A DNA stretch of 64,000 nt from Pirellulales bacterium (GTDB taxonomy: Bacteria > Planctomycetota > Planctomycetia > Pirellulales > JACPPG01), in NCBI GenBank assembly GCA_036499395.1, contig DASYDW010000116.1, forward strand, positions 157,832-221,831. Reading direction: 5' to 3'. Of this stretch, positions 1 through 50,051 are shown piece by piece. Numbering within the stretch: the first letter of the stretch is position 1; each line of letters starts with the position of its first letter. Both the position numbers and the translations under genes were made by a program. The notes under the pieces are model-generated. The model saw only the letters and a list, made by a program, of their open reading frames with translations. It had not been told where the DNA came from and did no database searches.

Positions 1-702
1 CCGGCCGACGAAGTGCAACTAATCATGGGGGACACGCGCGAGACGCGCTTTCTGAAACGTTCGGCCGCCTACGGTAAGCTCGATTTGCGCACCGTAGGCG
101 CCACGCTCTCTCGCACCGGCCGCGCGAAGTTGGATCACGTCGATAAGCCAACATGGAACACAGAAATTTTCGCAGCCGAGTGCGCCGGCTGTCACGCCAC
201 GGCCGTCGATCCCGAGACACACGCCTTCGCCGCGCCATCGCTCGATTGCTTCACCTGCCACGGCGATGCGCCGGCCAAGCATGCCAACGATCCGAAGTTG
301 ATGCCGCTGGCCAAGGCGCGCAAAGATTCGCCCGCCGTAGTTACCTCGATCTGCGCCCAATGCCATGTGCGATTCGGAAAATCGAAATCGACAGGCTTGC
401 CCTATGCCAACAACTTCGTGGCGGGCGATAATTTGTTCCGCGACTTCCAGGTCGACTTCGCGTTGGCTGATGATGTGAAGATCAATCCGGCCGACCGGCA
501 CGTGCTCGACAACGTGCGCGACGTCGTACTGTATGGTCGCGAGTCGATGACCTGCCTCAGTTGCCACCAAGTGCATACCGGCTCGACGAAAGCGCATCGC
601 GATGTGCCCGATCAAAAGTATTGCCTGCACTGCCACGAGGCCGGCAAACCGAAGAAGGAGCACATTCCCTACGAGGTTCACAGCCAGCGCTGCCAGTATT
701 GA
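1..702 (+). CDS. multihaem c-type cytochrome (5' end cut by window edge)
   Basis: The frame is open from nt 1, with no stop before the listed codon at 13. The translation has five CxxCH haem-binding motifs (CAGCH, CFTCH, CAQCH, CLSCH, CLHCH). Stop at 700-702. Confidence 0.8.
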   Translation, partial: PADEVQLIMGDTRETRFLKRSAAYGKLDLRTVGATLSRTGRAKLDHVDKPTWNTEIFAAECAGCHATAVDPETHAFAAPSLDCFTCHGDAPAKHANDPKLMPLAKARKDSPAVVTSICAQCHVRFGKSKSTGLPYANNFVAGDNLFRDFQVDFALADDVKINPADRHVLDNVRDVVLYGRESMTCLSCHQVHTGSTKAHRDVPDQKYCLHCHEAGKPKKEHIPYEVHSQRCQY

Positions 703-35839: not shown

Positions 35840-36127
35840 TTACTCAATCGGCGTCGAAACATGCCCTTGGCGATCGACCTTCGGTAGCACCTTGGGCTGG
35901 TAGATTTCGGTGTAGGCCTTGGCCTTGCGGTGCAGGTCCAATGCTTCGGTTGATTCCCAGCGCTCGACGAGCAGGAATTTCGTTTCGTCGACGGTCGAGT
36001 GATACACCTCGAAGCGGGCGCAGCCGGGCTCGGCGCGGGATAGCCGCCCCTGCTCGCGCAACAGCTCGCGAATCTCGGGGACGTCTTTGGCGTCTTTGAC
36101 GGTAATCCAGATGTTGGCATAGATCAT
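35840..36127 (-). CDS. antibiotic-biosynthesis-monooxygenase (ABM, YgiN-like) domain protein
   Basis: 95 aa. The pattern IWITVKD....F....L...SRAEPGC..FEVY......F.LVERWES.EALD.H matches the ABM/quinol monooxygenase family. Confidence 0.8.
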   Translation of the reverse strand: MIYANIWITVKDAKDVPEIRELLREQGRLSRAEPGCARFEVYHSTVDETKFLLVERWESTEALDLHRKAKAYTEIYQPKVLPKVDRQGHVSTPIE

Positions 36128-38235: not shown

Positions 38236-40350
38236 ATGCGTTTGAGAGTTTTGTCGGGTGATTGGTGTTCTCGGGTCGCGGCACTTTCGGTCGCGATCGT
38301 CATGGCGACGAGCGGTGCAGCACAGTCCGAAACGGTCACCGTCTATCGCGATGACTGGGGCGTACCGCACATTTATGCTGAGACATTGCCCGGCGCGGCC
38401 TTCGCGGCCGGTTACGCACAGGCCGAGGATCGCCTCGAACAACTTTTGCAGAACTATCGTCTCGCCGCCGGTACGCTGGCCGAGATCGCAGGCCCTGCGC
38501 TGATCGATCAGGACTATCGTTCGCGCGTCTGGCAGCACGAGGAAATCGCCCGCGAGCATTACAACCAAATGGATCCGAAGCTGAAAGCCGCTTCCGCCGG
38601 CTTTATTAAAGGTATCCAAAAGTATATGGACGAGCATCCGGACGAGGTGCCCAAGTGGGCGCAAAAGCTGGAACCGCATTTCCCGGTCATGCTCAGCCGA
38701 TTCATTATTTGGAACTGGCCCGAGGGACAGGCACAGGATGACCTCGAGCGGGCCGGTATCAAGCCCTCGGCGCAGCCTTACCTGGGTTCGAACGAATGGG
38801 TGATCGCGGCCGATCGCAGCGCGAATGGCAAGGTGATCGCACTGATCGACCCGCACTTGAGCTGGTATGGCCCCTTCCGCTTTTACGAGCAGCGGATGTA
38901 CGCCAGCGGCGAGGATTTTGCGCTGTCAGGCGCGGCGATCCTGGGGCTGCCAATGCCGGGCTTGGGGCACACGCAGTATGCGTCGGTCGCCATGACCACC
39001 GGCGGGCCCGACACGGCCGACGTCTATGAAGAGACCATCGACCCGGCCAATCCGCTGCGCTACGAAGTGGATGGCAAATGGCGAGAAATGACGACGCGCA
39101 AAATTACGCTTCGCGTGCGCGAAGGCGAGAAAGTGACCGAGAAGAGCTTTCAGGTCGATTCGACGCATCACGGCCCGGTCGTGGCACGCAAAGACGGCAA
39201 GGCATACACGATGGCCCTGGCGTATATCGATCGCGCAGGCTTGATGGAAGAGTTGTACAAGGTTCACACGGCCCGCAGCCTGGACGCGATAAAAGCGGCG
39301 CTAACCACCTGCGAGCTAATGCCGCAGAACATCATGATCGGCACCGTGGACGGCGACACATTCTATGTGCATGACGGGCGAGTGCCGGTCCGCAATCACG
39401 GCCTACCGACGAACAAGCCCGTGCCGGGCAATGTCTCGAAGAACGACTTCGCGGGCATTCACCCCTTCGAGGATTTGGCACAGGTCACGAATCCCAAGGA
39501 CGGGTACATGCAAAACTGCAACGTCGCGCCAGTGCATATGATGCGGCACAGCCCGATGACCAAGGAAAGTGCCAAGCGGCCGTATTTGTATTATGACGAT
39601 GGACGCGGCAATCATCAGCGCGCCGAGATGGTGACCGAGATTCTGCATACCGACAATTCCGTCACGCTCGACGAGGCGATCGACCTGGCCTTCTGCACTC
39701 AGATTCTCGGCGCCGAGAAATGGCAAGAGCGTCTGGCCCAGGCGTGGAAGTCGGCCAAGGACGCCGCAAAGACGCCCGATGTCAGCGCCGCTTTCGCCGC
39801 GATCCAAGGTTGGGACCGTCGTGCCGATCCGGGCAGCAACGGGGCCCTGGCCTATTACGCCTTCAAGATGGCGCTGGGCGGCAAGTTGGCCGAGGCGATC
39901 AGCGTGCCGGCAGATTTGAAGGATGAAGATATCCTGGCGGCGCTCACGAAGGGAACCGATTGGATGCGCAGCAAAGCCGGCGGCGTCAGCGCTCGTTACG
40001 GCGATGTGTTTCGAGTCGCCCGCAAAGACGGCAAGCAAAGCTGGCCCGTCGGCGGTGGCAGCGTGAAGGAGGCCGGCATGGCCACCCCGCGCGCGATCTC
40101 GTTCGACGCGGTCGGCGATCAAAAGATCGGCCACGGCGGCCAGACCTCGACGCAAATCGTGGTGCTCTCGAAGCCGCCACGCTCGTACATGGTGCTACCT
40201 CTGGGCGAGAGCGATCATCCCGCGACGGGGCACTGGGACGACCAGGCGGCGAAGTTGTTTAGCGAAGGGAAGGCCAAGGATACCTACTTCATGGACCGAG
40301 AAGGGCTCGCGCCGCATGTCACGAGCACCAAAAAGCTGGAATACAACTAA
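38236..40350 (+). CDS. penicillin acylase family Ntn-hydrolase (AHL/penicillin amidase-like)
   Basis: VTVYRDDWGVPHIYAE...AQAEDRLEQL alpha-subunit motifs. Autoprocessing-site context YLGSNEWVIA, where Ser is the nucleophile. Confidence 0.88.
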   Translation: MRLRVLSGDWCSRVAALSVAIVMATSGAAQSETVTVYRDDWGVPHIYAETLPGAAFAAGYAQAEDRLEQLLQNYRLAAGTLAEIAGPALIDQDYRSRVWQHEEIAREHYNQMDPKLKAASAGFIKGIQKYMDEHPDEVPKWAQKLEPHFPVMLSRFIIWNWPEGQAQDDLERAGIKPSAQPYLGSNEWVIAADRSANGKVIALIDPHLSWYGPFRFYEQRMYASGEDFALSGAAILGLPMPGLGHTQYASVAMTTGGPDTADVYEETIDPANPLRYEVDGKWREMTTRKITLRVREGEKVTEKSFQVDSTHHGPVVARKDGKAYTMALAYIDRAGLMEELYKVHTARSLDAIKAALTTCELMPQNIMIGTVDGDTFYVHDGRVPVRNHGLPTNKPVPGNVSKNDFAGIHPFEDLAQVTNPKDGYMQNCNVAPVHMMRHSPMTKESAKRPYLYYDDGRGNHQRAEMVTEILHTDNSVTLDEAIDLAFCTQILGAEKWQERLAQAWKSAKDAAKTPDVSAAFAAIQGWDRRADPGSNGALAYYAFKMALGGKLAEAISVPADLKDEDILAALTKGTDWMRSKAGGVSARYGDVFRVARKDGKQSWPVGGGSVKEAGMATPRAISFDAVGDQKIGHGGQTSTQIVVLSKPPRSYMVLPLGESDHPATGHWDDQAAKLFSEGKAKDTYFMDREGLAPHVTSTKKLEYN

Positions 40351-40369
40351 CGATGGCGGGAGAACGCGT

Positions 40370-41764
40370 ATGAAGCGGTGGTTAATCTGCCTTTGCAGCG
40401 TCGCGATTCTTGCAACTTCGTTCTTCACGCCGGCCACTGCGGCCGACAATAAAGCCGTGAATAGTGACGCCAAGCCGCTGCGCTACAAGGTGCATATTGG
40501 ACAGGAGTTGATCTACACCGGCGAGAGCGATTTTCAGCACGACGACGGCAGCATCAAAACCAAGATCAACTGGAAGCTGCTCCCCGTGCGGCAGAATCCG
40601 GACGGCGGCTGCCGAATGTTGATACGGCAAGGAACGTCGCGCGGGCGAACCAAGAAGGGCGAGGCCGAGGTCACCTACAGCCCCGAGAAGGTATCAATGG
40701 CCTGGTGCGACCTGGCGCCCGACGGCTGCATCGCGGACAATCCGACTCTCGATTTCACGCTCGATGTACGCGCTGTTTTGCCCCAATTGCCCAAGGCGGG
40801 GCAGACTTCCTGGCAATGCGACAACAGCCTGACCACGGTTCACGACGATTACAAGCTGCTCGAGTCAAACGCTGCGGATGCGGATCACATCCGGTTCGAG
40901 GATGTTTCCAAGACCCCGACGGACGAGATTTATCTCAGCTCGAAGAAGTCGACCTTCTCGTTCGACGTGAAGCGGGGGCTAGTCGATCAGGCGGACGCCG
41001 AAACCGCACAAGGGTATGGCGTCGAGGGGCGCGGTACGACCCGGCTGTCGCTCAGTGAAGTCGCGCAAGTCGATCCGAACATCGCCACGTTCGTGGCCGT
41101 CGAAATGACCGATTACTTCGCCGTCAAACAGGAATACGAAGAGCTGCTGAGCGAAGCTGAAAAAGATGCTACGCGATCGAGTGATCTGTCGACCCGGGCG
41201 AAAGCGATCCTCGAGGACTTGCGCGCCACGGTTCAATCCGAGATCTTTCAATCGCAGCTTGACGCCGACCTGAAGCGGCATGACACAGTCGCCAAGCACG
41301 CACTCGAGCAGGCGCAACGCTTCGCCGCGGTCGTGGGTCAGCCATCGCCGACATGGCAGACGACTGACCTGGCGGGCAACACCCGCTCGATCGAAGATTG
41401 CCGCGGCAAGGTCGTGGTGCTCGATTTCTGGTATCGCGGGTGCGGCTGGTGCATCCGTGCCATGCCGCAGATCAAGCAGTTGGCCGCGCACTGTCAGGGG
41501 CAGCCGGTCGAGGTGTTTGGCATGAACACCGATGACGACCAGGCCGATGCCCGTTTCGTGGTCGAGAAGCTGGCGCTCTCCTACCCGACGTTAAAGGCCG
41601 ACGGCCTGGACGAGAAATACGGCGTGCGCGGCTTTCCAACGCTCTTGATCATCGATCAGGCGGGCACCGTGCGCGAGGTCCACGTCGGGTATTCGCCCAC
41701 GCTGGGGAAAAGCGTGACGGCCTCGATCGACAAGCTGCTGGCCGAAACCGCGGCCGCAAAGTGA
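40370..41764 (+). CDS. secreted TlpA-like thiol:disulfide oxidoreductase with large unknown N-terminal domain
   Basis: Signal peptide MKRWLICLCSVAILATSFFTPATA. C-terminal thioredoxin fold GKVVVLDFWYRGCGWCIRAMP (CxxC) ...GVRGFPTLLIID. The first ~330 aa are unassigned. Confidence 0.8.
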   Translation: MKRWLICLCSVAILATSFFTPATAADNKAVNSDAKPLRYKVHIGQELIYTGESDFQHDDGSIKTKINWKLLPVRQNPDGGCRMLIRQGTSRGRTKKGEAEVTYSPEKVSMAWCDLAPDGCIADNPTLDFTLDVRAVLPQLPKAGQTSWQCDNSLTTVHDDYKLLESNAADADHIRFEDVSKTPTDEIYLSSKKSTFSFDVKRGLVDQADAETAQGYGVEGRGTTRLSLSEVAQVDPNIATFVAVEMTDYFAVKQEYEELLSEAEKDATRSSDLSTRAKAILEDLRATVQSEIFQSQLDADLKRHDTVAKHALEQAQRFAAVVGQPSPTWQTTDLAGNTRSIEDCRGKVVVLDFWYRGCGWCIRAMPQIKQLAAHCQGQPVEVFGMNTDDDQADARFVVEKLALSYPTLKADGLDEKYGVRGFPTLLIIDQAGTVREVHVGYSPTLGKSVTASIDKLLAETAAAK

Positions 41765-42023
41765 AGGTAATAGAGGGGCGAGGCCGCGGGGTTTCGCGTC
41801 CTCTGCCACGCCGGCGGCCACGATAAAACCCGGTTTCTGGCGGTGCCAGCAGAGCGTCCGGCGTCGGTTTTCGGCCAGTCCGCTATTTACATGAGTAGCA
41901 TTGGTCGATAAGAATGTTTGTAAGCTAACTATTTTCCTTCGGGCGACGTGGGTCCGTTCCACCGGACTGGCAAAGCCCAAGGCTTTTGACTGCCTTTTTC
42001 GTCAACCCTATCTGAGGTGATTC

Positions 42024-43859
42024 ATGCGCGGCTCGTTGCAAGTGGCGGCTGTGGCGGTTGCCCTTGTGGCCTGCGGGCAGGTCTTGGCGGACCAGCCCTC
42101 GAATGTTCCGCCGATCGGCAAGAAGATCGACGGCTTTTCGTTGCCTGACATTCATGGCAACAATCGCACGCTCGCCGAGTTGCGCGGCGGCAAGGCCTTG
42201 GTCGTGGCGTTCGTCGGCGTTGAGTGTCCGCTCGTTAAGCAGTACGCGCCGCGGTTGGCGACGTTAGCTGCGGAATACGAAGCACAGGGCGTGAAGTTCG
42301 TCGCGATCGATTCGAACCTGCAGGATTCGCTGGCCGAAATCGCACACTTCGCCAAGATGCACGACCTGACGTTTCCCGTGCTGAAAGACATGAATAATCG
42401 CGTTGCCGATGCCTTCGGCGCCACGCGTACGCCGGAAGTATTCGTGCTCGACGCAGACGACGTGCTGCGATACGCGGGCCGGGTGGACGACCAGTTCGGC
42501 TTCAAGACCGGGGCCGGCTATGCCAAGCCACGCTTAGAGCGTCGCGACCTGGCCGTGTCGATCGACGAACTGTTGGCCGGCAAGCCCGTCAGCCAGCCAC
42601 TGGTAAAGGCCGACGGTTGCATCATCGGTCGTGTGAAGCATGAACCGCACGGCGATGTCACCTATTCGAACCAGATCGCGCGAATTTTGCAGACGCGTTG
42701 CCTGGAATGCCATCGCGATGGCGAAGTCGCGCCGTTCGCCGTCGATTCGTACGACGAAGTGGTGGGCTGGGCCGAAATGATTCGCGAGGTGGTCAACGAC
42801 GGACGCATGCCCCCTTGGTACGCCAATCCCGCGCACGGCAAGTATTCCAACGACGCACGGCTGACCGACGAAGAAAAGGGTCTGCTGGCCAGTTGGGTCG
42901 ACAATGGTTGCCCGGAAGGGGACAAGTCGCAACTGCCGGCGCCGCGTGAATTCGCCAAGGGTTGGCGCATCGGCGAGCCCGACCAGGTGATCTTCGTCGA
43001 CAGCGAACCGTACGCGGTGCCCGCCGAAGGGACCGTGGAATACAAGTACTTCACGGTCGACCCCGGTTGGACCGAGGACAAATGGGTGCAAGCCACTGAG
43101 TGCCGGCCAGGCAACTCGGCCGTGGTGCATCACATCATTTGCTTTATTCGCGCGCCGGGCAGCGTCGAAGGGATGATGGCCGGGCTGGGTGGATACGCAC
43201 CGGGGAATCCCTCGGACGTGCATCCGGCAGGAACCGCCACGTTTGTGCCAGCCAATTCGAAACTGGTTTTCCAGATGCACTACACGCCCAACGGCGTCGC
43301 GACGACGGATCGCAGCTCGATCGGCATTAAGTTCGCCGACCCGCAGAGTGTGAAGAAGAAGGTACACGGCGACGCGATTGGCAACCTGTCGCTAAACATT
43401 CCGGCCGGCGATCCCAACTTCGAAGTCAAAGCCAAGCACAAGTTCCGCCGCGACATGTTGATCTTGAACATGACGCCGCACATGCATCTGCGTGGTAAGG
43501 ATTTCCGGTACGTGCTGACGCATCCGGATGGACGCGAGCAGGTGCTGTTGGACGTGCCGAATTGGGACTTCAACTGGCAACTGCGTTACGAGTTGGCCGA
43601 GCCAGTGCTCGCTCCCAAGGGCTCGACATTGCATTGCGTCGCGCACTTCGACAACTCGACCGAGAACCTGGCGAATCCGGATCCGACGAAGGTCGTTCAC
43701 TTCGGCGACCAGACGTGGGAAGAAATGATGTTCGGCTTCTACGCTTCGATCGATCCGAAAGAGGATCTAACCGTTAAGGTTGCAGGCGAAGCCGACAAGA
43801 ACGAAGGCCCCCGCAGCGGTTCGACCCTCGAACGCGACGGAAACGCCGGCGGACGATAA
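42024..43859 (+). CDS. exported fusion protein: redoxin-like domain + CxxCH haem motif + PHM/DBH-like copper monooxygenase-type domain
   Basis: Signal peptide. AhpC/TSA-like region with a single Cys (VGVECPLV). CLECH at nt 42699-42713, followed by RMPPW. C-terminal VVHHIICF, TPHMHLRGKDF and WEEMMFGFY resemble CuH/CuM ligand motifs. Confidence 0.7.
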   Translation: MRGSLQVAAVAVALVACGQVLADQPSNVPPIGKKIDGFSLPDIHGNNRTLAELRGGKALVVAFVGVECPLVKQYAPRLATLAAEYEAQGVKFVAIDSNLQDSLAEIAHFAKMHDLTFPVLKDMNNRVADAFGATRTPEVFVLDADDVLRYAGRVDDQFGFKTGAGYAKPRLERRDLAVSIDELLAGKPVSQPLVKADGCIIGRVKHEPHGDVTYSNQIARILQTRCLECHRDGEVAPFAVDSYDEVVGWAEMIREVVNDGRMPPWYANPAHGKYSNDARLTDEEKGLLASWVDNGCPEGDKSQLPAPREFAKGWRIGEPDQVIFVDSEPYAVPAEGTVEYKYFTVDPGWTEDKWVQATECRPGNSAVVHHIICFIRAPGSVEGMMAGLGGYAPGNPSDVHPAGTATFVPANSKLVFQMHYTPNGVATTDRSSIGIKFADPQSVKKKVHGDAIGNLSLNIPAGDPNFEVKAKHKFRRDMLILNMTPHMHLRGKDFRYVLTHPDGREQVLLDVPNWDFNWQLRYELAEPVLAPKGSTLHCVAHFDNSTENLANPDPTKVVHFGDQTWEEMMFGFYASIDPKEDLTVKVAGEADKNEGPRSGSTLERDGNAGGR

Positions 43860-43919: not shown

Positions 43920-44053
43920 ATGCGCCGAACGCCGGCCGCCCGAGGTGGACCGGCCCTGGACAGGCCTGGCGCTCGACCGGAAAATGCAGCCCAGACGTTC
44001 GCCCTGCGCGGGGCGAATGCCAGATCGAACCGATTCTTTCAGGGTTGCTTGCG

Positions 44054-45094
44054 ATGATGCGTTGGACTTTTTGGGCCACGCTCGTGAGTGTGGTGGTTTT
44101 GCAAAACCACTTCACCCCGCCCGCTTGCGCGCAAGCTCCCCTGGTCACACGCGTGCTGGAACGCATTCCTCGCACCGCGCAGGAACTGGCCGAAGCGCAC
44201 GACAAAAGCGACTTGATCTGCACGATGCTCGAAGAGGGGGTGCCGCTCGCGCAGCCGACGTTCAGCGAGCGGACGGTCGTGGACGTCGACGTGGTCCGCG
44301 GCGGAGTGCGCAGCCGCCAGCAGGCGCAGCTCAATTTCGGACGCTGGCCGGTGATCGATTACGGCACGTTGATGATCGACGAGGATCGCAAGCAGTTGCC
44401 GTTTTTCACAAGCGGCGTCATCCTCGACGTGATCGACAACACCTACATCAGCCTGCAAGCGCGCGTGCAGCGTGCCAGTCCGGACGGCGAGCCCTATTTG
44501 TATTACGTGCCCGCCGCCTGCGCCGGCGAATATGGCAAGCCGGCCACGGCGTCCGAATTCGCGGCGCTGCAGCAATCGGCCGTGAGTAACGTTCACGGCC
44601 TGGGCTTGTTCGTCAAGCCTGGACAACCGCGCAATCCGCAGGCGCTGCGAACGCTGGTGATCAGCATTAAGGGGAGCCGGATCATTCCCAATAAAGAGTT
44701 GGAAGTGATCGAAACCGTGCCGACGATGGAACTGCTGTTCGTGCGGATGCGGATCGCGCCCCCGGCGAAGGGGCAAGCACCGTCCGCGGCCGATGTGCGG
44801 GTACATGCCTTCGGCACGATCGACGGCTTGACGAAGCTGGTCAGCTTCGCGCCGTACACGGTTCCGAAAAACGTCAACGATTGCACGATTCGCAGCACCG
44901 TGCGGATCACCGAGTATGCGCTGGCCGGACAACTGCCGTCGGCCCGGGCCGCGCGCGAGGTGCGCGTGCAAACGGACAAAGAATTCGCGATCGCCGACCT
45001 GAACGCCTACGTGCGCCGCGCCGGAATGCCAGGCGATGCGTTTGACAACCTTACAGAACTGCTCGACGCAATCATCGACGGCCAGCTACGTTGA
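44054..45094 (+). CDS. secreted hypothetical protein
   Basis: MMRWTFWATLVSVVVLQNHFTPPACAQA signal peptide. 346 aa with no recognised motif. The stop overlaps the TTG of the downstream shadow ORF. Confidence 0.6.
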   Translation: MMRWTFWATLVSVVVLQNHFTPPACAQAPLVTRVLERIPRTAQELAEAHDKSDLICTMLEEGVPLAQPTFSERTVVDVDVVRGGVRSRQQAQLNFGRWPVIDYGTLMIDEDRKQLPFFTSGVILDVIDNTYISLQARVQRASPDGEPYLYYVPAACAGEYGKPATASEFAALQQSAVSNVHGLGLFVKPGQPRNPQALRTLVISIKGSRIIPNKELEVIETVPTMELLFVRMRIAPPAKGQAPSAADVRVHAFGTIDGLTKLVSFAPYTVPKNVNDCTIRSTVRITEYALAGQLPSARAAREVRVQTDKEFAIADLNAYVRRAGMPGDAFDNLTELLDAIIDGQLR

Positions 45095-49208: not shown

Positions 49209-50051
49209 TCAATCTGCCGGCCGGCGCCCGAGCAGTCCCCAGGCTGTTGTCAGGATCGCCGATACGGCCAGCGCCGCTGTGCCGGGCTCGGGCACGGGCG
49301 AAGAGAACGACAGCGTGACGTCGTAGTTGCTGCTCCCCAGCGGGTTGTCGGCGAAAATCAAGTCGACGTGGTCATTAAACACCTCGAACGAGGCCAGGTC
49401 GCGCCCCTCGTTTTTGACGAACGTCGCCGAGCTCAGGTCGACCGTGTTGGGCAGAAACGTCGTGGCGCCCGAATTCGACAAAGTGGGCTGCACGCTCGGA
49501 TCCCAGGCGACGCCGTTCAAAGACATCGAGGTCGGGGTGCCCCAGAAATAATGATCGAGCGTAGCGCCCGTGTTCGTAATCACGACGCGATCGCTGCCGT
49601 CGATCGTTCCTTGCACGTGCAATAGAGTTTGCGTGGTGGGCACCCGGGGCGGCTCTTTCGTCAACACGACCTGAAACGTATACAGGTCGTCGCCATTGGG
49701 CGTATCCGCCAGATGGATTTGCAGATCGTTGCCATCAATCTCGGCGGCAACCTGGTCACGACCAGCCGTCTGCACGACGTTGGCGCGGTAATCGCTCAGG
49801 TCGCTGGGGATGAAGGGGCTGCCAGCGTCCGAAAGCGTGGTGTTGGTCTGCGGGTCCCACGATTGCCCGTCGAAATCGACACCCGTGGGAAAGCCGAAAT
49901 ACGTGTGATCCCAAGTGGCCTGCGTGGGCGTGACGTCAATCGTGTCGCTGCCGTCGATGCGCCCCGAGAAGGTCAGCGTCACAGTGTCTGCGCTCGACAG
50001 GTTTGCTAAGAGCACGAGTGACGCGACCGACGGCAACAGAACACGATGCAT
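49209..50051 (-). CDS. PEP-CTERM exported protein with tandemly duplicated domain
   Basis: Signal peptide MHRVLLPSVASLVLLANLSSA. Two ~115-aa homologous units (DGSDTIDVTP...W DPQTNTTLS / DGSDRVVITN...WDPSVQPTLS). C-terminal VPEPGTAALAVSAILTTAWGLLGRR. Confidence 0.85.
   Translation of the reverse strand: MHRVLLPSVASLVLLANLSSADTVTLTFSGRIDGSDTIDVTPTQATWDHTYFGFPTGVDFDGQSWDPQTNTTLSDAGSPFIPSDLSDYRANVVQTAGRDQVAAEIDGNDLQIHLADTPNGDDLYTFQVVLTKEPPRVPTTQTLLHVQGTIDGSDRVVITNTGATLDHYFWGTPTSMSLNGVAWDPSVQPTLSNSGATTFLPNTVDLSSATFVKNEGRDLASFEVFNDHVDLIFADNPLGSSNYDVTLSFSSPVPEPGTAALAVSAILTTAWGLLGRRPAD

Follow-up and report, generated by a model that had tools for sequence, protein, structure and literature searches.

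A three-module exported protein of a Pirellulales bacterium with a predicted PHM/DBH-type two-copper domain behind a haem c module

We describe a gene of a Pirellulales bacterium that lies in a 64,000-nucleotide stretch of contig DASYDW010000116.1 (assembly GCA_036499395.1, forward-strand positions 157,832 to 221,831), which is called the window below and to which all nucleotide coordinates refer. The gene is complete, is read on the forward strand, as are all features placed within it, and extends from an ATG start at 42024 to 43859, stop codon included, encoding a protein of 611 amino acids (aa). Gene calling done independently on the source contig, a 365-kb JGI metagenome contig, arrived at identical boundaries. 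The product is recorded as NCBI HEY4311930.1, a "redoxin domain-containing protein" of a Pirellulales metagenome-assembled genome (MAG). It is an exported protein of three modules, in which a thioredoxin-fold redoxin is followed by a mono-haem cytochrome c and by a core of two β-sandwiches.

A first-pass annotation, made from the letters of the sequence, had proposed a signal peptide at the start of the protein, and this is borne out by its relatives. The N-terminus (MRGSLQVAAVAVALVACGQVLA|DQ) has the layout of a Sec-type signal peptide (aa 1-22; 42024..42089), with cleavage probably at VLA|DQ, and the same layout recurs in 36/36 aligned homologues: positive charge at the start, then a hydrophobic core, in each case with an N-terminal 10-mer above 1.8 on the Kyte-Doolittle scale, and finally an AxA-like site. 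The target carries a lipobox-like LVAC17; similar motifs occur in 4 of the 36 homologues, and the feature is hence not conserved. Export via a Sec signal is thus predicted for the target. At the opposite end lies a low-complexity tail (aa 588-611; 43785..43856) that is not conserved, is modelled with a predicted local distance difference test (pLDDT) score below 50 and is probably disordered.

The redoxin module occupies aa 27-204 (42102..42635) and is identified by Pfam, by PDB sequence comparison and by Foldseek. Pfam places AhpC-TSA (E 7.7e-20) and Redoxin (E 6.2e-18) at aa 31-157. The nearest solved structures by sequence are 3u5r, 2ywi and 2cvb, matched over aa 25-202 with E values from 6.6e-23 (3u5r) to 5.8e-17, and the same three entries are returned at about 1e-13 when an AlphaFold2 (AF2) model of the target is searched with Foldseek. 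These are structural-genomics entries of thioredoxin-like proteins of unknown function. They match some 175 residues of the target, including a C-terminal extension and its GCxI motif, but they are stand-alone proteins of about 190-220 aa and, unlike the target, have no haem or copper domain fused to them.

The active site of this module departs from that of its better-known relatives. In an alignment with ResA, Cys68 (42225..42227), the sole active-site cysteine, is matched to the first Cys of WCEPC, and the second falls on Val71, an outcome that agrees with the earlier description of an AhpC/TSA-like domain whose CxxC is cut down to one Cys. Cys68 is kept in 74/75 divergent redoxin modules of the family. 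The second position, valine in the target motif C68-P-L-V71, is Val or Ala in the family, with Cys in 2 of the 75. A single cysteine is also found in 3u5r (motif RCPFV), as in the target, whereas 2ywi and 2cvb possess an additional Cys three residues upstream (CNHC). In peroxiredoxins, the peroxidatic Cys lies within PxxxT/SxxC; the residue three places before Cys68 is Gly65 (Gly in 59 of the 75), in contrast to the Thr or Ser of peroxiredoxins. The best NCBIfam matches are ResA and DsbE, but both of these models and those for Prx/BCP score far under their cut-offs (ResA 58.5 bits against 170). Because the second cysteine of CxxC is absent, glycine replaces Thr/Ser and these scores fall so short, the module, judged by its sequence, falls outside both the classical thiol-disulfide oxidoreductases and the peroxiredoxins. 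A further cysteine, Cys199 (42618..42620), lies in a GCxIGR motif at the end of the extension and is conserved in 73/73 family members; a GCxI cysteine, in the form GC(I/N/S/T)I, is common to the target, 3u5r, 2ywi and 2cvb. We regard Cys199 as a candidate redox partner of Cys68.

The second module (aa 208-300; 42645..42923) is assigned to the mono-haem c-type cytochromes by Pfam and profile matches. When aa 198-310 are scanned alone, Pfam Haem_bd (PF14376) reaches 32.5 bits against a cut-off of 27 and Cytochrome_CBB3 is matched at E 2.2e-4; in the full-length scan Haem_bd falls just under the cut-off, at 25.8 bits. Weak profile matches connect the module to the PccH-type cytochrome 4rlr, the haem domain of hydrazine synthase alpha and cytochrome c6. 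The haem-attachment motif CLECH (aa 226-230; 42699..42713) and the RMPPW motif that follows it (aa 261-265; 42804..42818) are both present where the first-pass annotation had placed them. C226, C229, the proximal ligand H230 and M262, the probable sixth (distal) ligand, are each retained in 117/117 divergent relatives, and MPPW of the target falls opposite MPAW of cytochrome c6, although the profile alignment that pairs them is weak. All of this fits a mono-haem, His/Met-ligated c-type cytochrome, with predicted covalent attachment and ligation of the haem.

The C-terminal core consists of two β-sandwiches. The first, of CuH type (aa ~310-440; 42951..43343), is the counterpart of the N-terminal catalytic domain of peptidylglycine α-hydroxylating monooxygenase (PHM) and dopamine β-monooxygenase (DBH), as seen with Foldseek and profile alignments. 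The second, of CuM type (aa ~441-585; 43344..43778), is the counterpart of Pfam Cu2_monoox_C, as seen with Foldseek, with the PF03712 matches of relatives and with hhalign. The AF2 model, made from 36 homologues, has a mean pLDDT of 80.9 (mostly 80-95 in the β-domains) and a predicted template modelling (pTM) score of 0.75. Searched against the PDB with Foldseek, it retrieves about 30 entries of rat PHM together with human DBH at E 4e-13 to 5e-10 and a probability of 1.00. These matches cover 275-304 aligned columns, span both β-sandwiches and yield a target TM-score of ~0.64 for PHM. The PHM entries (the catalytic core of PAM; 1phm, 1opm, 1sdw) are the best structural matches after the redoxins, with E ~1e-12 over ~280 columns, and among the best 50 PDB matches only redoxins, PHM and DBH appear, with no further fold family.

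Profile comparisons point in the same direction. We used a profile of 22 divergent redoxin-less relatives (A3), a narrow C-terminal profile of close orthologues (A2) and a profile of the CuM domain only (A4). Against PDB sequences, A3 matched human DBH (4zel) at E 7.5e-5, and the DBH fragment from this match served to gather an alignment of the DBH/TBH family. In hhalign comparisons with that alignment, A3 scored a probability of 96.3% and E 1.6e-9 over 254 columns, A4 a probability of 77.7% and E 1.9e-5, and A2 an E of 1.4e-4. Moreover, 16/22 of the divergent relatives match Pfam Cu2_monoox_C (PF03712) at E<=0.01, one of them (P0175) with 27.0 bits against a curated cut-off of 23, and 1/22 weakly matches Cu2_monooxygen (PF01082; E 0.0026).

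The copper ligands of PHM and DBH can be traced through these alignments. In DBH, CuH and CuM are bound by His262/263/333 and by His412/414 with Met487, respectively (PMC4846438); the corresponding pattern in PHM is H107/H108/H172 and H242/H244/M314 (PMC12164859). Since the chain index of 4zel is offset by +39 from the residue numbers, ligands were counted through the A3-4zel alignment, which sets the HH of the family on DBH His262/His263, the His of QxHY on His333 and the HxH on His412/His414. The predicted CuH ligands of the target are accordingly H369 and H370 in VVHHIICF (43128..43133), equivalent to PHM H107/H108, and H419 in FQMHYTPNG (43278..43280), equivalent to PHM H172. The last of these lies beyond the residues named in the first-pass annotation. 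For CuM, the predicted histidine ligands are those of H486-M487-H488 in TPHMHLRGKDF (43479..43487), equivalent to PHM H242/H244, and the predicted thioether ligand is M568, equivalent to PHM M314, in E566-E567-M568-M569 of EEMMFGFY (43719..43730). The (D/E)EM of the family falls residue for residue on the DBH/TBH DEM that contains DBH Met487 in the hhalign alignments of both A3 and A4.

Conservation was assessed on 130 Cu domains taken from representatives of 50%-identity clusters. H369 and H370 are each present in 129/130, and H419, H486 and H488 each in 130/130; E567-M568 is kept in 128/128 as compared with 78/130 for M569, and M568 is therefore the ligand candidate. The HH, HxH and EEMMFGFY motifs noticed at the outset are thus all present, and their His and Met ligands conserved, in a manner that, judged from the alignments, goes far beyond chance. 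In PHM, Q272 forms a hydrogen bond with the CuM ligand H242 (PMC12164859). Its probable counterpart is Q519 in DFNWQ (43578..43580), which is invariant in alignments A1, A3, A4 and A6, aligns with the Gln of DBH "FQE" and has the identical +31 spacing from the second His of HxH. All six PHM/DBH copper ligands consequently have aligned equivalents in the target. Because fold, sequence profiles and ligand alignment agree, the earlier suggestion that the C-terminal ~290 aa form a PHM/DBH-type two-copper domain with a haem for electron entry in front is supported.

The protein belongs to a very large family. When aa 302-596 served as a phmmer query on 1.84 billion representatives, counted as clusters at 50% identity, 10,214 clusters were matched at E<=1e-3; with the threshold tightened to E<=1e-30, 1,465 remained. 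Domain hidden Markov models applied to the best 150 of the 10,214 clusters assigned 82 to a redoxin-haem-Cu architecture, 46 to haem-Cu without redoxin and 22 to Cu only. A haem-less architecture was nevertheless rejected: 22/22 of the "Cu only" entries have no signal peptide and start inside or just before the Cu domain, as N-terminally truncated gene calls do. In the complete representatives of these best 150 clusters, the haem module directly precedes the Cu core in 128/128 and the redoxin is present in 82/128, so that the pairing of haem and copper domains is obligatory and the redoxin optional. In some relatives, such as P0121 (1251 aa), the whole redoxin-haem-Cu cassette occurs twice in one polypeptide.

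A scan of GTDB genomes gave at least 591 confirmed loci, 79 of which were kept for neighbour analysis. The family is distributed over Planctomycetota (Pirellulales, Planctomycetaceae, Gemmataceae and a Kuenenia MAG) and Acidobacteriota (Blastocatellia, Bryobacterales and Terriglobia). Among the 79 loci, several genomes contribute two or three paralogues; the 64-kb window holds no paralogue of the target. Databases name relatives "peroxiredoxin", "redoxin", "thiol-disulfide isomerase" or "cytochrome c family protein", and no database source calls any examined member a copper monooxygenase. We regard the family as real, widespread, uncharacterised and mis-annotated, and its biochemistry is predicted from sequence and model. 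Accessory domains were considered as clues to the substrate. In 35 long relatives we found fusions with EF-hand, TPR, GDSL lipase, CBM48-type, MBOAT and 3-keto-disaccharide-hydrolase-like domains, a heterogeneous set with no consistent theme, and the idea was rejected.

The occurrence of canonical DBH-like genes in bacteria was also considered and rejected. Metagenomic proteins named "dopamine β-monooxygenase" exist; they measure ~283-323 aa, share ~50% identity with the core of human DBH and lie on contigs of up to 1.2 Mb. One of them, P0303 (L086 and L087, 6001-6855), sits among fragmented gene calls of eukaryote type, with split pieces of an amino-acid permease, a DUF716 protein and sparse calls, a context that indicates exons on eukaryotic contigs and not bacterial genes.

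The genomic surroundings of the target were analysed with respect to possible partners. The gene is set apart from its neighbours by 259 bp and 185 bp of intergenic DNA; a weak σ70-like match lies upstream (41886-41915), and no terminator-like site was found near the gene. Directly upstream, a gene at 40316-41764 (forward strand; called from 40370 on the source contig) encodes a TlpA-like protein of 464-482 aa with the motif WYRGCGWC. The TlpA/ResA-like thioredoxin domain of this protein is limited to its last ~140 aa, and its N-terminal ~330 aa have no Pfam match. Further upstream are a gene of the penicillin-amidase (Ntn-hydrolase) family (38236-40350, forward strand; Pfam E 1.8e-120) and, on the reverse strand, a small ABM-type monooxygenase gene (35840-36127). 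The gene directly downstream, 44045-45094 (forward strand; called from 44054 on the source contig), specifies a hypothetical exported protein; its ~346 aa begin with a hydrophobic stretch and match nothing in Pfam. A SpoU methylase gene is also among the neighbours.

The first-pass annotation had proposed to follow the co-occurrence of the target with the upstream TlpA-like gene, and a functional link between the two is not supported. The order of amidase, TlpA-like gene, target, ~346-aa gene and SpoU methylase is unchanged in orthologues that are 87% and 79% identical, and the pair of amidase and TlpA-like gene accompanies the target in close orthologues. In a 71% orthologue, in which the ~346-aa gene and the SpoU methylase still adjoin the target, a serpin gene on the opposite strand replaces the TlpA-like gene. 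A tblastn search of the 79 loci with all window neighbours recovered nothing syntenic, and its two "TlpA" matches lie within the redoxin domains of the homologues themselves. Clustering of neighbours in the same loci revealed no recurrent family except those abundant throughout the genomes (DUF1501-like and sulfatase, 12 loci each). The TlpA-like gene was consequently rejected as a partner: being lost at 71% identity and in the distant loci, its co-occurrence is best read as a sign of recent common ancestry, not of a conserved partnership, and the target protein looks self-contained.

Two other features of the window deserve mention. A stop-free stretch running off its left edge (1-699, forward strand) contains five CxxCH motifs in 233 aa and probably encodes the C-terminal end of a multihaem c-type cytochrome. 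On the reverse strand, 49209-50051 encodes a 280-aa protein without Pfam match that ends in ...PVPEPGTAALAVSAILTTAWGLLGRRPAD, which resembles a PEP-CTERM-type sorting signal.

Taken by fold, profile homology and ligands, the core of the target belongs to the copper type II monooxygenase superfamily, although it is beyond the reach of curated Pfam models. We consider it probable that the protein is a Sec-exported, haem-c-fed and ascorbate-independent non-coupled two-copper monooxygenase of the PHM/DBH class, whose substrate is not a glycine-extended peptide. The analysis shows how the domains are organised, the fold, the homology to DBH/PHM, the equivalent and conserved ligands, the obligatory pairing of haem and Cu and the export signal. 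The loading with metal and haem, the way in which electrons flow, the monooxygenase chemistry and the part of the redoxin belong to a scheme that we infer. In it, the electron-transfer copper CuH would be bound by H369, H370 and H419, and the O2-activating copper CuM by H486, H488 and M568. The fused His/Met-ligated haem c would replace ascorbate, as well as the eukaryotic DOMON/cytochrome b561 system, as donor of one electron at a time, drawing on the periplasmic respiratory pool or on the N-terminal module. Single electrons would then pass from haem to CuH and from CuH to CuM, where O2 would be activated and a C-H bond hydroxylated. The single-Cys redoxin module, with Cys68 and Cys199, would be an accessory found in about two thirds of the members. 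It might serve as a two-electron dithiol reservoir that feeds the haem; alternatively, it could handle a thiol substrate or scavenge peroxide from uncoupled turnover. Since a third of the family dispenses with this module, we treat it as accessory and rate these ideas about its role as weak.

The comparison with known copper enzymes illustrates both the similarities and the differences of this arrangement. DBH, TBH and MOXD1 (eukaryotic; PDB 4zel) have in common with the target the core of two β-sandwiches, the six ligands, the Gln at +31 and the xEM motif. DBH and the target each possess an extra N-terminal domain from a family of potential redox or haem-binding function, but a predicted haem c domain of the covalent type stands in the target in place of DOMON, and there is no dimerisation domain. 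DBH and TBH are eukaryotic and ascorbate-dependent, whereas the target is bacterial, predicted to be periplasmic and presumably independent of ascorbate. As compared with PAM, the target is without the PAL partner domain, and haem is the presumed donor instead of ascorbate. A functional parallel is offered by the copper nitrite reductases fused to haem c and by the cytochrome domain of cellobiose dehydrogenase that feeds lytic polysaccharide monooxygenases (LPMOs): in these systems a cytochrome, fused or as a partner, gives single electrons to a copper centre and no small-molecule reductant is needed. The parallel concerns the way of working, since the copper domains involved (cupredoxin, LPMO) are unrelated in fold to the target core and the reactions differ.

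Several observations weigh against this interpretation. The domain search suggested in the first-pass annotation came out negative for the copper domain: AhpC-TSA and Redoxin were found, as described above, but neither the whole target nor its isolated C-terminal 275 aa matches Cu2_monooxygen or Cu2_monoox_C in Pfam, even at E<=10, a result that the first-pass annotation, taken literally, would count against a copper domain. Over this C-terminal region the Pfam scan is empty for every family, and the NCBIfam scan of the target likewise contains no copper-monooxygenase match. The homology is thus visible only with family profiles or structure, and not with all of the profiles: against PDB sequences, A2 misses both PHM and DBH and returns a single spurious match to gingipain (E 0.43), and A4 has no matches. 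Identity to PHM and DBH in the Foldseek alignments is 15-18%, and hhalign with A2 shifts the EEM/DEM register by one residue. Where DBH and TBH have cysteines in the region aligned by hhalign (A2), some of them joined in disulfides of DBH, the target has no Cys at the matching positions. In PHM, R240, two residues before HxH, clamps the carboxylate of the peptide (PMC12164859). This position is T484 in the target and is variable in the family (M39, F19, T16, S15, L15), so that no conserved counterpart of the clamp exists; its loss is the reason for which we expect a substrate other than a glycine-extended peptide, and together with the missing cysteines it indicates that both chemistry and substrate may differ from those of PHM and DBH. 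Neither genomic context nor fused accessory domains supplied a clue to the substrate. As to the redoxin, we know of little precedent for thiols that pass electrons to haem c unaided by a flavin or quinone, which makes its proposed role weak.

An alternative in which the protein acts on no organic substrate has to be weighed first. Electrons could run from the thiols of Cys68 and Cys199 through haem and coppers to O2 or H2O2, making the protein a periplasmic sulfhydryl oxidase or a device for detoxifying peroxide or oxygen. The wire-like order of thiol, haem, CuH and CuM would suit such a function, as would the retention of both cysteines wherever the redoxin is present (74/75 and 73/73), AhpC/TSA as the best Pfam match of the N-terminal module, the loss of the substrate-binding Arg of PHM and the lack of substrate-related neighbours or fusions among the 79 loci and 35 long relatives. 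Thiols are, however, no general electron source for the family, because the redoxin is absent from 46/128 complete representatives in which haem and Cu are always there. Furthermore, the full CuM set of the C-H-hydroxylating enzymes, His2Met with the second-sphere Gln, is strictly kept, and Gly65 stands where peroxiredoxins have Thr three residues before the Cys. We therefore judge this oxidase function to be unlikely.

Far less credit can be given to the reading implied by the database names ("redoxin domain-containing protein", "peroxiredoxin", "thiol-disulfide isomerase"), namely a peroxiredoxin or TlpA/ResA-like oxidoreductase that works with the upstream TlpA-like protein in the maturation of cytochromes or copper proteins and whose C-terminal region is non-catalytic. 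ResA and DsbE are indeed the top NCBIfam matches, if far under cut-off, and the CGWC-containing TlpA-like gene is kept directly upstream in orthologues at 79-87% identity, but that gene is gone in the 71% orthologue and absent from the 79 loci, the CxxC that defines ResA and TlpA has its second Cys replaced by Val or Ala, and the redoxin is optional. The C-terminal domain is, moreover, the best conserved part of the protein, with a mean column identity of 73% (A2) as compared with 57% for the whole. That the β-sandwiches form a binding or copper-handling module without redox catalysis (a carbohydrate or peptide binder, a copper store or a chaperone) is just as improbable, for although there are non-copper proteins with the PHM/PNGase F fold and a few relatives carry CBM48-type or 3-keto-disaccharide-hydrolase-like domains, both full ligand sets are strictly kept, the obligatorily fused cytochrome c is not needed for binding, and the structural matches are to PHM and DBH specifically and not to PNGase F.

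With the two-copper monooxygenase as the preferred interpretation, the family can be set against the published record. In the accessible literature, the non-coupled two-copper monooxygenases PHM, DBH and TBH are treated as eukaryotic and ascorbate-dependent; bacteria are unmentioned in a review of PAM evolution and appear once in a mechanistic review of 2025, in the unrelated context of antibiotics. In the accessible full-text literature, the coverage of which is incomplete, no PHM-like enzyme from bacteria and no haem-c/PHM-like fusion turned out to be described, and within that coverage the earlier statement that no bacterial example has been characterised is consistent with our search. How electrons arrive at the CuH-CuM pair and get across it continues to be debated. 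We speculate, with considerable reserve, that the eukaryotic neuroendocrine copper monooxygenases could have in this family their prokaryotic counterpart, one that does without ascorbate, and perhaps even their evolutionary root. As a fully self-sufficient periplasmic "electron wire", of which Planctomycetota and Acidobacteriota would deploy many paralogues in each genome, the enzyme would store two electrons in the Cys68/Cys199 dithiol, release them singly through the fused haem c and spend them on hydroxylation at CuH/CuM.

If the proposed monooxygenase function is true, the family would provide a bacterial, disulfide-free model in which the entry of electrons can be tracked optically through the haem. 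It would also add a class to the bacterial copper oxygenases, beside particulate methane monooxygenase (pMMO), LPMOs and tyrosinases, and would correct a systematic annotation gap that concerns thousands of proteins called "peroxiredoxin", "redoxin" or "cytochrome c family protein". In soil and aquatic Planctomycetota and Acidobacteriota, phyla that degrade polymers, the family has multiplied into several paralogues per genome, which hints at an oxidative activity so far overlooked there.

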